Positions 18,224 through 56,213 of a stretch of DNA of 64,000 bases are shown here, in pieces. A program made the position numbers and the translations under genes. The stretch lies in the NCBI RefSeq assembly GCF_988243305.1, contig NZ_OZ547136.1; one strand, given 5' to 3'. Each line of letters opens with the position of its first letter. The first letter of the stretch is position 1. The notes beneath the pieces are model-generated. The model ran no database searches. It was not told the DNA's origin and saw nothing but the letters and a program-made list of their open reading frames with translations.

Positions 18224-18541
18224 AGTTAGCTCCAATTTCCGTAAGGCAAAAAAAAAGAAAGGTAACTTCCCCCGCGAGAGGGAAGTTACCTTTCTCATTA
18301 TCTCTGGTAACTGGAGATAATTTTTATCATAAGGGCATAATCGCTAATGTGATCGTAATCACAGTGTGATATTCGAATTGTCAAATAATTTTAAAAAGCA
18401 GAAGCGTGATTACTCTCACACAACACCACTACTTTCCATGTTATTTCTTATTGCAATTACTAGAGACCTGAGAAAAGTAATCCACCTGAAAGGGCGGCTT
18501 ACTTTTCTCTTTTTTTTGTCTATTACAAATGGGAATACGAT

Positions 18542-42728: not shown

Positions 42729-44081
42729 TTATTGCCCCGCGACAGGTTTCAGCTCGATACGCTTGATATCGCCCACCAGCACCAGGTAGCTCAGTACCGC
42801 GATTAAGGCATGAACACCAACATAAATCAGCGCCCCATTAAACGAGCCAGTCGTGCCAACGATATAACCAATTGCGATTGGCGTGACGATGCCAGAAATG
42901 TTACCGAACATGTTGAACAGGCCACCGGAAAGACCGCTGATCTCTTTTGGCGCGGTATCTGCCATTACTGCCCAACCCAGCGCCCCGATGCCCTTACCGA
43001 AGAAGGCCAGCGCCATAAAGCCGATGATCATCCACTCAACGTTGACGTAGTTGCAGAACACCATCACCATCGACAGCAACATGCCCATTACGATCGGTGT
43101 TTTACGCGCAATGTTCAGCGATCCCGTGCGGCGCATCAGCCAGTCGGAAATAATCCCACCCAGCACACCGCCGATAAAACCGCAAACCGCCGGAACGGAA
43201 GCCACAAAGCCCGCTTTCAGAATCGACATCCCGCGTGCCTGCACCAGATAAACCGGGAACCAGGTAATAAAGAAGTAAGTCAGGGCGTTGATACAGTACT
43301 GACCGATATAAACGCCGATCATCATCCGTGACCCGAGCAGCTGTTTGATCTGCCCCCACTTCACACTGAACGGTACTTTAACTTTGGTGTTTTGCTGATC
43401 CATATTGATCAGCGCGCCACCCGCGGCGATATACTCCAGCTCTTTCTGATTTACCCCCGGATGTTGATTTGGCTCGTGGATGACTTTCAACCAGATAAAG
43501 CTGATGACAATGCCCAGACCGCCCATAAAGAAGAAGACGTGTGACCAGCCCACTTCATGCGTCAGCCAGCCCATAATCGGCGCGAAGATCACCGTTGCGA
43601 AGTATTGAGCGGAGTTAAAAATCGACACCGCCGTTCCCCTTTCCTGCGCCGGAAACCAGGCCGCTACAATGCGACTGTTACCGGGGAAAGATGGCGCTTC
43701 AGCAAGCCCGACCAGGAAGCGCAGCGTAAACAGGGCAACGATAATGCCGAATCCACTAAAAATATCGACGAAGCCTTGCAGCAAGGTAAACATCGACCAG
43801 ATAAAGATCGACCAGAAGTAGACGCGTTTTGAACCAAAACGGTCCAGCAACCAGCCACCAGGGATCTGCCCGATAACATAAGCCCATGAGAAAGCAGAGA
43901 ACACATAGCCCATTCCCACAGGATCAAGGCCGATATCTTTGGCCATTTCCGAACCGGCGATAGAGAGCGTAGCGCGGTCGCCGTAGTTGAAGGATGTGAC
44001 GATAAACAACATCACCACTATCCAGTAACGAGCATTCGTGCGTTTTTCCACACTGCTCGCAGCCTGACTTAAAGAACTCAT
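42729..44081 (-). CDS. gudP: Glucarate/galactarate MFS transporter (450 aa)
   Basis: 450 aa hydrophobic MFS ORF heading the gudPXD operon. Confidence 0.92.
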
Positions 44082-44515
44082 TGTTGCACTCCTGAAAATT
44101 CGCGTTAGCCACGCTCACTCTGGACTGCGACATCGCCAGGAAATCAGAGGTGACGTAGGGTGTTTTTTGCCGTTTTTATAGGTCGTTCGCCGAATGCGGC
44201 GCGTGTTTATATCTGGCAATAGCAGTATAAAAAGCGCGCCATAGCGGCTCACCGTGCAACAACACAACATTAATGCGTTCAATGAGGCCCGATTTTGGCA
44301 TTAGCCCTGGACGGTGGAATCCACTTCACGGAAATGAAAACAAAAACAAGAAAGGAAGGGTTAAAACGAAGAAATAAAGAAGAGTATGAAATGGATCGCT
44401 TGACTCCAGGCAAACGCCAGTAAAAATCCACGCTATGAAGCAGTTTTTACTGGCATTTGCCTGAAAAGATTCGATTCAGCACCGCTAAAACGGCATTTCC
44501 CGCTCGCTGAACGTA

Positions 44516-44965
44516 TCAGGACAACAGCGTGCCCCAATGTTCGACCCACGGATTTGATTCCGTTTCCGGTTCCGGGTTCTCACTGGCGTCAATCAACAGC
44601 ATTTCTCCCACCCGCTGAGCGCTCTGTTCCTGCAACAAGGCATCGAACTGTTTGCCGCCATTGCAGAAATTCACATAACTACTGTCGCCGAGCGCAATCA
44701 CGCCATAACGCAGATTCGGCTGGAAGCCCAGACTATCTTTGATTCCCTGAAAGAGCGGCACAATGCTATCAGGAAGGTCGCCCTGCCCGGTCGTGGACGT
44801 AACCACCAGAACATACTTATCCTGATAGGGCAGCCAGTCGCTTAATTCAGGATCTTCAAATACCGTTGCTTTGTGGCCCTGCGCGGTCAGAATTGCTTCC
44901 GCTTCTTCCGCCACTAACAGCGAATTTCCGTACATGGTGCCCACAAAAATACCAATTTCCGCCAT
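44516..44965 (-). CDS. yqcA: Flavodoxin-like protein (149 aa)
   Basis: [26 protein letters not shown]..., short-chain flavodoxin fold. Confidence 0.9.
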
Positions 44966-46094: not shown

Positions 46095-46140
46095 AAAGCA
46101 ACCTCAATAAGAAAAACTGCCGCGAAGGATAGCAGGAATA

Positions 46141-46505
46141 AAAAAAGGGAGCACTGTATTCACAGTGCTCCCGGTTCGTTTCGCAGCATTCCAGCTACTT
46201 TTGTTGCTCCCTGCTCATCCTTGACAACTTTTCCTCTGGCCTTGCGGCCAATCGTTCATCCTGAACTATTGCTTCCTGCTCACACCACCCCGATGTGATA
46301 CTTCATCCTGAAGTGTCCCTGGCCTTCCTGACCCACCGAATCATCCTGACCGGTTCTCATTCTCCATCCTGGAGGTGTCCTTTAACGCGTCCTGCGTCAT
46401 CCTCTTCGCTTCATCCAGAAGCCTTTCCCTGAAACACCATCCTGGTGTGTCCTTCAGAAGTGTCATCATCCTGATGTTCACTTCGTTGTCTGACTCCCTG
46501 TCGAC
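46141..46505 (-). ncRNA. csrB: CsrB small RNA (CsrA-sequestering), about 365 nt
   Basis: Minus strand begins GUCGACAGGGAGUCAGACAACGAAG... and carries about 18 CAGGA(U/A)G-type GGA motifs (plus-strand catcctg/ttcctg/tccctg); ends in terminator hairpin gggagcactg-tattca-cagtgctccc plus U-run. Confidence 0.85.
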
Positions 46506-55667: not shown

Positions 55668-56213
55668 TAGCTACCTCTCTCTGATTCAAAACAGGGCAAT
55701 AATGTTGTTCCTTTCACACTATTGAATTAGCCGTTTAATTACCCACCATCTTCTTCCTGATTAACAAGAAAGAAATTCACAAGCTTATATTTTGTGACCT
55801 GGTTCAACTAATCACAGTAAATAACTGCAAGTTCTCTTTTTATAACCCTATTAAAAATGACCGCTCTTAAAAATATTTATCAAAACGGTCATTTTTCCAT
55901 TCCCTCTCGCCAGAAATGCCCGTTTTCGGCACAAACAATTAATACGGTCATCGGGTTTGTGTTTTTTATGATTTATTTTCTGAAACGGGCATGAAATTTC
56001 GATTATTAAAGTGATGGTAGTCACATAAAGTCACCTCCCAGCTAATAAGTGTGACCGCCGTCATATTACAGAGCGTTTTTTATTTGAAAATGAATCCATG
56101 AGTTCATTTCTGACAGGCAAATATTCACTGATATGAAGCCCGAACTCGCTGGTTTTGCACTTTTGAAAACATAACCGATTACGTGCTTAAGCTTCTGAAC
56201 CTAAGAGGATGCT
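55668..56213. promoter_or_regulatory. Divergent fucAO / fucPIKUR promoter region
   Basis: 546-bp AT-rich intergenic region between divergent fucA and fucP; FucR/CRP sites expected from the known regulon but not individually resolved. Confidence 0.45.

Follow-up and report, generated by a model that had tools for sequence, protein, structure and literature searches.

What is the long inverted repeat that lies between yqcA and gudP in Escherichia coli, and what might it do there? The repeat was studied in a window (the whole stretch of DNA analysed, 64,000 nucleotides of contig NZ_OZ547136.1) that is E. coli DNA; its yqcA-gudP intergenic region is 99% identical to K-12 MG1655 2922101-2922534. 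An earlier note, made from the letters of the window, had suggested a regulatory structure or a protein-binding palindrome rather than a simple terminator, and had placed the repeat in a gap of about 430 bp between the yqcA stop and the gudP start, which measures 434 bp. Five genes of the locus (gudP, yqcA, truC, yqcC, and csrB) lie on the minus strand, as does every gene within several kb. The immediate surroundings of the repeat are:

44082-44515, 434 bp: yqcA-gudP intergenic region, between the yqcA stop and the gudP start
44516..44965, minus strand: yqcA (flavodoxin) coding sequence, from the K-12 annotation
42729..44081, minus strand: gudP coding sequence, from the K-12 annotation

The arms of the repeat, GGCAAACGCCAGTAAAAA (44409-44426) and TTTTTACTGGCATTTGCC (44444-44461), are 18 nt each and are separated by 17 nt, exactly as previously described. 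Their sole mismatch is A:C on the plus strand and a G.U pair on the minus (yqcA-sense) strand. In the fold, solid pairing extends over 20 bp (44407-44426 with 44444-44463), and above this stem there are three weak pairs, a bulged A, a 4-bp apical stem, and an 8-nt loop. A repeat search finds that imperfect symmetry reaches arms of 35 nt (44392-44478). The hairpin is located 53-109 nt 3' of the yqcA stop codon, on the same (minus) strand, and about 325 nt upstream of the gudP start codon. Within it, a U5 tract pairs with an A5 tract, a feature that the earlier note did not mention. The parts of the structure, and a neighbour that holds a remnant of the conserved motif CUGAAUCG, are:

44474..44512, minus strand: smaller upstream hairpin in the yqcA 3' UTR, GUUCAGC...GCUGAAU around GAGCGG..CCGUUU (local fold)
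44444..44463, minus strand: 5' arm of the RNA hairpin, CAGGCAAAUGCCAGUAAAAA, conserved across genera in two alignments
44427..44443, minus strand: apical region, in which CUGC (44440-44443) pairs with GUGG (44428-44431), with an 8-nt loop and one bulged A (fold)
44407..44426, minus strand: 3' arm of the RNA hairpin, UUUUUACUGGCGUUUGCCUG (fold and alignments)
44422-44426, minus strand: internal U5 tract, inside the 3' arm
44409-44414, minus strand: Escherichia-specific UUUGCC (UUUUCA in other genera), within the 3' arm

The inverted repeat is real and far beyond chance. When both strands were folded as RNA, as the earlier note had recommended, the 53-nt core proved stable on both and stronger on the minus strand (-30.0 kcal/mol, z -7.4) than on the plus strand (-24.7 kcal/mol, z -6.4), and none of 200 shuffles folded as well as the hairpin core. 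The arm pattern, with up to three mismatches allowed, occurs in the window at these two places only (0.14 expected), and the repeat is the longest in the whole 64 kb with arms within 40 nt of each other. Other palindromes are present elsewhere in the window. About 200 nt separate two inverted repeats with strong hairpin potential, at 18256-18295 and 18470-18509, one with perfect 16-nt arms and an 8-nt loop and the other with 17-nt arms, 88% complementary, and a 6-nt loop; a 44-bp palindrome at 55853-55896 is made of two directly adjoining arms of 22 nt that are 82% complementary (AAAAATGACCGCTCTTAAAAAT / ATTTATCAAAACGGTCATTTTT).

Is the hairpin a member of a known family of repeats or RNAs? 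By the tests run, it is neither a REP element nor a described RNA family, and it does not qualify as a canonical terminator. Both the 434-bp region and the 87-nt hairpin are present in one copy in 5,425 of 5,426 complete E. coli genomes, with 95-99% identity, and a search for dispersed copies with near and distant BLAST modes found one place per genome in 5,425 genomes. None of the complete E. coli genomes carries an annotated feature at the hairpin. A search with Rfam 15 at E values up to 1, covering the intergenic region of E. coli and of five other genera, gave no match. A known RNA family was rejected on this basis, as CsrB alone was found nearby; the full-length CsrB sRNA gene (Rfam RF00018, 382.9 bits) has its place between syd and yqcC, at 46137-46496 (minus strand), in agreement with the K-12 annotation. 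The end of a dispersed repeat or mobile element was likewise rejected, the hairpin being single-copy in E. coli and the Citrobacter version of the surrounding module matching this locus alone.

To follow the hairpin beyond E. coli, 100,044 species-representative genomes were scanned for YqcA; this gave 80 loci, in most of which yqcA lies directly upstream of gudP. A covariance model built from 15 hairpin homologs and run on the window and the 80 loci matched at the orthologous position only, in six Escherichia lineages, six Citrobacter, two Salmonella, and two Superficieibacter, and less strongly in two Silvania and at two further loci; no second copy was found in the window or in any of these loci. 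In 19 other species the same position holds a REP-like GCCGGG...CCCGGC palindrome, which never occurs together with the hairpin, and in 30 species a short G+C hairpin stands right after the yqcA stop codon. Thus, a stable hairpin after yqcA is a recurrent feature that has been made from different sequences. The yqcA-gudP junction is also a hot spot of rearrangement. In E. coli 2014C-4135 (L086), the sequence diverges directly past GTCAAG, from position 141; E. albertii (L014) and several Citrobacter (L010, L013, L015, L016, and L019) have other DNA after yqcA; and in one of these Citrobacter (L015) gudP is about 2 kb further off.

The pairing has been maintained across genera. Among Escherichia species, which are 85-93% identical over the hairpin, the arms are nearly fixed and the 17 apical nucleotides are largely rewritten. 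Across the 15 homologs, 83.7% of pair cells are paired, a figure that drops to 35-51% if partners are shifted by 1-3 columns; in seven pairs both partners have changed, and neither the observed pairing nor the covariation score was attained in any of 500 column shuffles. One outer-stem pair is A-U in Escherichia and in Citrobacter L007, U-A in Citrobacter L008 and L022, and C-G in Salmonella and Superficieibacter. A position that accepts all three pairs fits a need for base pairing, not base-specific contact with a protein. The covariation comes mainly from this outer-stem pair and the inner stem, most columns being simply conserved and the sequences being phylogenetically related, and it supports with moderate confidence the idea that pairing has been selected across the homologs. 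The earlier note had held that loss of the paired positions in related genomes would count against the structure; they are instead kept across genera, with compensatory changes.

The strand on which the hairpin acts is suggested by the kinds of substitution that its stem accepts. Of 19 sequences, 12 share a standing U.G pair. The window itself has an A at 44430, where K-12 and apparently all 5,425 complete E. coli genomes have G, and no E. coli genome is 100% identical to the window over the 87-nt hairpin. This private G-to-A change is C-to-U in the RNA and turns an apical G-C pair into G.U on the sense strand only; similarly, a C-to-U stem variant of strain BA92 is wobble-compatible on the sense strand only. 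Scores from the covariance model are also higher for the sense strand at all loci (78.7 vs 45.6 bits in the window), although this comparison is partly circular, the model having been made from that strand. There is one counter-example, the divergent E. coli lineage L002, with a C.A mismatch that becomes a wobble only on the antisense strand. Together with the minus-strand orientation of all genes nearby, these patterns give modest support for a hairpin that acts on the yqcA-sense (minus) strand.

The homologs in other genera suggest where the hairpin came from. In Citrobacter, Superficieibacter, and others, it has the form GCCnGUAAAA, an inner stem-loop of 6-7 bp, UUUUUACnGGC, and then G/AUUUUCA, so that a second short U-run comes after the outer stem. 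Inner tails are T5-7 in most homologs, and in the Citrobacter L007 homolog a terminator-like call on both strands covers the inner stem and its T5-6. The inner hairpin has a ΔG of -2.4 to -8.8 kcal/mol where it was found in Citrobacter, Salmonella, and Superficieibacter (none was found in L008 or L023). In all Escherichia, the inner stem is at most 4 bp, with a ΔG of 0 to -5.5 kcal/mol; in the window, the apical stem that precedes U5 has 4 bp, two of them wobble pairs, and about -3 kcal/mol. In addition, the outer TTTTCA has become TTTGCC in Escherichia (TTTGTC in L002), which pairs with an upstream GGCAAA, and the resulting G-C pairs at the bottom of the stem (alignment columns 41-45 with 93-97) are found in Escherichia only. 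This homology to terminator-like hairpins of Citrobacter places the E. coli structure in the class of terminator or 3'-end hairpins and not among new regulatory devices, which goes against the "regulatory structure" proposed earlier.

An intrinsic terminator is taken here as a stable, G+C-containing stem-loop with, directly after it, a U-rich tract of at least about 5 U in 8 nt. The E. coli hairpin has the expected location, just downstream of yqcA and on the same strand, but nothing U-rich comes after the full stem. A consensus terminator scan of the minus strand over 43900-44700 made no call, and the full stem and the core stem are followed by UGGAGUCA and GUUUGCCU, respectively; the missing U-tract on the yqcA side, which had been noticed earlier, is thus confirmed. 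With a script that approximates the TransTermHP tail score, the outer tail GTTTGCC scores -2.79, versus -3.0 to -3.2 for the GTTTTCA or ATTTTCA of most relatives, and the internal tail TTTTTACTGGC scores -4.75. Taken together, the scan without a terminator and the changes in Escherichia indicate that the E. coli hairpin is very stable, is of terminator ancestry, and lacks a usable U-tract. Relatives also have a CCCTCC...GGAGGG hairpin directly after yqcA, which is absent in E. coli. On the plus strand, the sole terminator-like call in the intergenic region is at 44188-44201 (CGCCGAATGCGGCG then CGTGTTTATA), inside the gudP upstream region; the number of such plus-strand calls is not above chance expectation.

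What, then, stops transcription between yqcA and gudP? Adams et al. 2021 (PMC7815308, supplementary file 2) list a Rho termination region on the minus strand that peaks at K-12 2922118, with upstream/downstream reads of 114/23 without bicyclomycin and 112/90 with bicyclomycin (Rho score 3.98, p 9e-8). The call has an 800-nt resolution and could also reflect effects of bicyclomycin on transcripts that start inside the intergenic region. From these reads, transcription from yqcA apparently continues beyond the hairpin and is halted by Rho ahead of gudP. Directly 3' of the hairpin the following features are found, with the Rho peak further along:

44300..44404, 105 nt, minus strand: pyrimidine-rich, C-over-G stretch, candidate rut, directly 3' of the hairpin
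44382..44404, minus strand: conserved motif GUCAAGCGAUCCAUUUCAUACUC abutting the hairpin, at the upstream edge of the conserved gudP-proximal region
44099, minus strand: peak of the Rho region (K-12 2922118, mapped through L001), 18 nt before the gudP start codon

The stretch from 44300 to 44404 is 70% pyrimidine on the minus strand, with 26 C and 15 G (C/G 1.73). Across all 35 taxa with the flanking motif, the median C/G over the corresponding 90 nt is 2.08, versus 1.25 for the intergenic regions overall. This composition is the one expected of a Rho loading site, and the stretch is a candidate for such a site.

The abutting motif is present in 35 of 81 sequences, including hairpin-less taxa (L037, L041, L053, L075, and L081). 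It reads GTCAAGCGATCCATTTCATACTC on the minus strand of the window, with the consensus GTCAAGCGAyCnnTTTCAyACTC, and on the opposite strand in other genera (TGTGAAACAGGTCGCT) it resembles a CRP half-site (TGTGA; TATGA in E. coli). Closer to gudP, at 44325-44338 on the minus strand, TTCATTTCCGTGAA (within TTTTCATTTCCGTGAAGT) forms a TTCA-N6-TGAA palindrome that is almost invariant across genera in the gudP upstream region and is a candidate operator for gudP regulation. No counterpart of this palindrome was found in the garP-garD intergenic region of K-12, and a CdaR operator shared between that region and the gudP upstream region was rejected, since the two have only chance matches of 7-12 nt.

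Published transcript ends have been sought as well. The curated Term-seq 3' ends of that work (Adams et al. 2021, PMC7815308), which cover three growth conditions, include none within K-12 2922200-2922599, and thus the steady-state 3' end predicted for the hairpin base was not observed. Low expression could explain this, as there are only about 114 reads in the 800-nt upstream window. The earlier opinion that the repeat is not a simple terminator agrees with both this result and the scan. In other published work, a search of main texts found no paper that pairs yqcA with gudP or with a terminator and nothing that ties gudT to an sRNA in Salmonella; a CdaR biosensor paper gave no start-site information, and a SMRT-Cappable-seq supplement had no entry for the locus.

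These findings recall a class of 3' ends described by Dar and Sorek 2018 (PMC6061677), in which Rho-dependent E. coli transcripts end right after stable stem-loops. These stem-loops have no U-tract, shield the RNA from PNPase and RNase II, and are followed just downstream by an enrichment of C over G. Several properties of such protective stem-loops are seen here: a stable stem-loop without a U-rich tail, C over G downstream, and, at 800-nt resolution in published data, Rho-dependent downstream transcription. Our preferred reading, which we hold with moderate confidence, is that the hairpin is a decayed terminator that now serves a Rho-terminated truC-yqcA transcript as a 3'-UTR hairpin without a U-tract, where it would act as a barrier to exonucleases, fix the 3' end of the mRNA, and, with Rho, insulate gudP.

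The proposed history and mechanism are as follows. An ancestral terminator-type hairpin, common to several Enterobacteriaceae, would have carried, in this order, an A-tract, the inner stem-loop with U5-6 after it, the outer stem, and another short run of U (TTTTCA). In the line leading to Escherichia, the inner stem would have decayed to 4 bp, and the change of TTTTCA to TTTGCC would have added basal G-C pairs while removing the outer U-tract, leaving a hairpin of about 20-23 bp and -30 kcal/mol with no U-tract after it. RNA polymerase would mostly pass this hairpin; Rho would load on the C-rich, G-poor stretch just downstream and halt transcription before gudP; and 3'-to-5' exonucleases would trim the transcript back to the hairpin. 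We infer that the hairpin would in this way define and protect the 3' end of yqcA mRNA, presumably at its base, and that hairpin and Rho together may insulate the gudP control region from upstream transcription.

The evidence must also be weighed against the possibility that the hairpin is a working intrinsic terminator in E. coli, perhaps on both strands, where transcripts would end at the internal U5 or else at GUUUGCCU, past the 11-bp core and apical stem. The position, 53 nt past the yqcA stop, is right; the A-tract mirrors the U-tract, as it does in bidirectional terminators; and both the two-stranded terminator-like call in Citrobacter and the approximate TransTermHP score of the internal tail are in line with termination. 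However, the 4-bp stem with two wobbles in front of U5 is poor, the outer U-run of the relatives is gone in Escherichia, neither the scan nor the list of Term-seq 3' ends has an entry at the hairpin, and a Rho-dependent region downstream implies read-through. A working terminator is unlikely.

A relic with no present function in E. coli, retained by slow change of the whole intergenic region, is rather improbable. Since the 434-bp region is so highly conserved throughout the species, conservation within E. coli says little, and it is true that the terminator features have decayed and that no experimental signal is attached to the hairpin. Yet the contrast across Escherichia species between the nearly fixed arms and the rewritten apical loop is not that expected of a relic, nor is the fact that the Escherichia-specific changes lengthen the stem and do not degrade it. 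The polymorphisms in the stem, moreover, are wobble-compatible.

The hairpin may also be seen as the last part of a larger element. In Citrobacter, Salmonella, Silvania, Phytobacter-like taxa, and Superficieibacter, a conserved module of about 160 nt comes after yqcA:

L007:2951-3112, L023:2951-3112, L046:2951-3110, L050:2951-3116, L063:2951-3120: module of about 160 nt (E. coli remnant, 44466-44515)

The module consists, in order, of the CCCTCC..GGAGGG hairpin, a second hairpin with a GCCAGTAAGC loop or arm, AACGACC, a variable hairpin, and a near-invariant motif, ACTGAATCG[AT]GTTAGC..GGGCAnnTGCC, just 5' of the hairpin studied here; E. coli keeps GCTGAATCG only. The module has no match in Rfam. 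For 12 divergent taxa, RNAalifold of the whole 3' UTR recovers only the first G+C hairpin and the GGC/GCC mini-stem, and the right half of the studied hairpin is not conserved in the Phytobacter-like and Silvania sequences. It is conceivable, if doubtful, that the module is a hitherto undescribed regulatory RNA derived from the 3' UTR, or that it serves as a platform to which Hfq or ProQ binds, with ACUGAAUCGnGUUAGC as its invariant single-stranded motif and the studied hairpin as its terminator; E. coli would then keep a remodelled 3' hairpin, perhaps with a lineage-specific role such as dsRNA processing that gates read-through into the glucarate operon.

Processing of this kind can also be considered for its own sake. 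RNase III acts on about two turns of near-perfect dsRNA, and the helix of 20-23 bp (20 solid pairs and three weak ones) is long enough; it also stands between two transcription units, with read-through when Rho is inhibited. A dsRNA processing site (e.g. for RNase III), or a cis-regulatory structure that controls the amount of upstream transcription or the isoform that reaches gudP, is nevertheless quite improbable. The long uninterrupted helix is specific to Escherichia, and the hairpin is both distant from the gudP start and upstream of the region that is conserved in hairpin-less taxa, making it unlikely to be part of a gudP leader. In a p19 dsRNA-capture study of RNase III products (PMC7373196), yqcA and gudP are absent from the ten supplementary files.

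Another proposal, that the hairpin is the terminator of an sRNA derived from the yqcA 3' UTR, with ACUGAAUCGnGUUAGC in the other genera as its conserved single-stranded seed, would account for the strongly conserved motif just 5' of the hairpin in relatives and for the module to which it belongs. This is very unlikely: E. coli lacks most of the module as well as the U-tract that Hfq-type sRNAs need, no convincing promoter was seen, Rfam had no match in any genus tested, and a supplement of RIL-seq-based predictions (PMC8175672) contains a node for the yqcA CDS only, with no 3'UTR or intergenic RNA.

Action at the level of DNA, through a palindromic regulator-binding site or a cruciform, can practically be dismissed, for although a long palindrome has a conserved DNA motif as its neighbour, at the margin of the gudP control region, and although the plus strand contains a weak promoter-like sequence (TTGACT-16-AAAAAT, 44400-44427), arms 17 bp apart (half-sites about 35 bp apart, centre to centre) are atypical of dimeric operators, one position is A-U, C-G, or U-A and always complementary, changes of the G.U type are tolerated, promoter-like matches are at the chance level (1 vs 0.9 expected), and the neighbouring motif is conserved without the hairpin in several taxa. 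The "protein-binding palindrome" of the earlier note likewise finds no support, given the spacing of the half-sites and the three Watson-Crick pairs at one position. The plus-strand promoter was itself rejected, as its count is that of chance and sequences without the hairpin do not conserve its -10 part.

If the preferred reading of a U-less 3'-UTR hairpin on a Rho-terminated message is correct, the locus adds one more unannotated case to the ways in which E. coli ends and protects such messages, at a position that other lineages have filled with REP elements or short G+C hairpins. The three-base change from TTTTCA to TTTGCC, which would have removed a U-run and extended a stem at once, then offers an evolutionary snapshot. 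Locally, the value lies in annotating the end of the truC-yqcA transcript and in understanding how the glucarate operon may be insulated from upstream transcription.

Several known systems invite comparison. RNase III-processed intergenic hairpins, such as that of rpsO-pnp, share with the yqcA hairpin a long near-perfect helix between two transcription units; here, however, the p19 tables held no evidence of cleavage, and the long helix is lineage-specific. REP/BIME elements are also stable, U-less palindromes in 3' UTRs, and REP-like sequences occupy this very position in 19 other Enterobacteriaceae, but the yqcA hairpin is single-copy, belongs to no dispersed family, and has no sequence resemblance to REP. 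With intrinsic and bidirectional terminators it has in common its position, its orientation, its hairpin form, and the mirrored A5/U5, and its Citrobacter homologs scan as terminators on both strands; in E. coli, unlike in these terminators, U5 is preceded by a 4-bp stem and is buried in a longer helix, and the full stem has nothing U-rich after it.

The closest likeness is to the U-less 3' stem-loops of Rho-dependent transcripts (PMC6061677), which are similarly placed shortly after a stop codon with no U-rich tract, C over G next, and a Rho region downstream. There are differences here too: no 3' end is reported at the base of the yqcA hairpin in the one Term-seq data set, its stem (about 20-23 bp) is longer than is typical, and it keeps a terminator-derived A5/U5, whereas the class is described as lacking upstream A-tracts. 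All the same, the hairpin is most probably an unannotated member of this class, derived from an intrinsic terminator.
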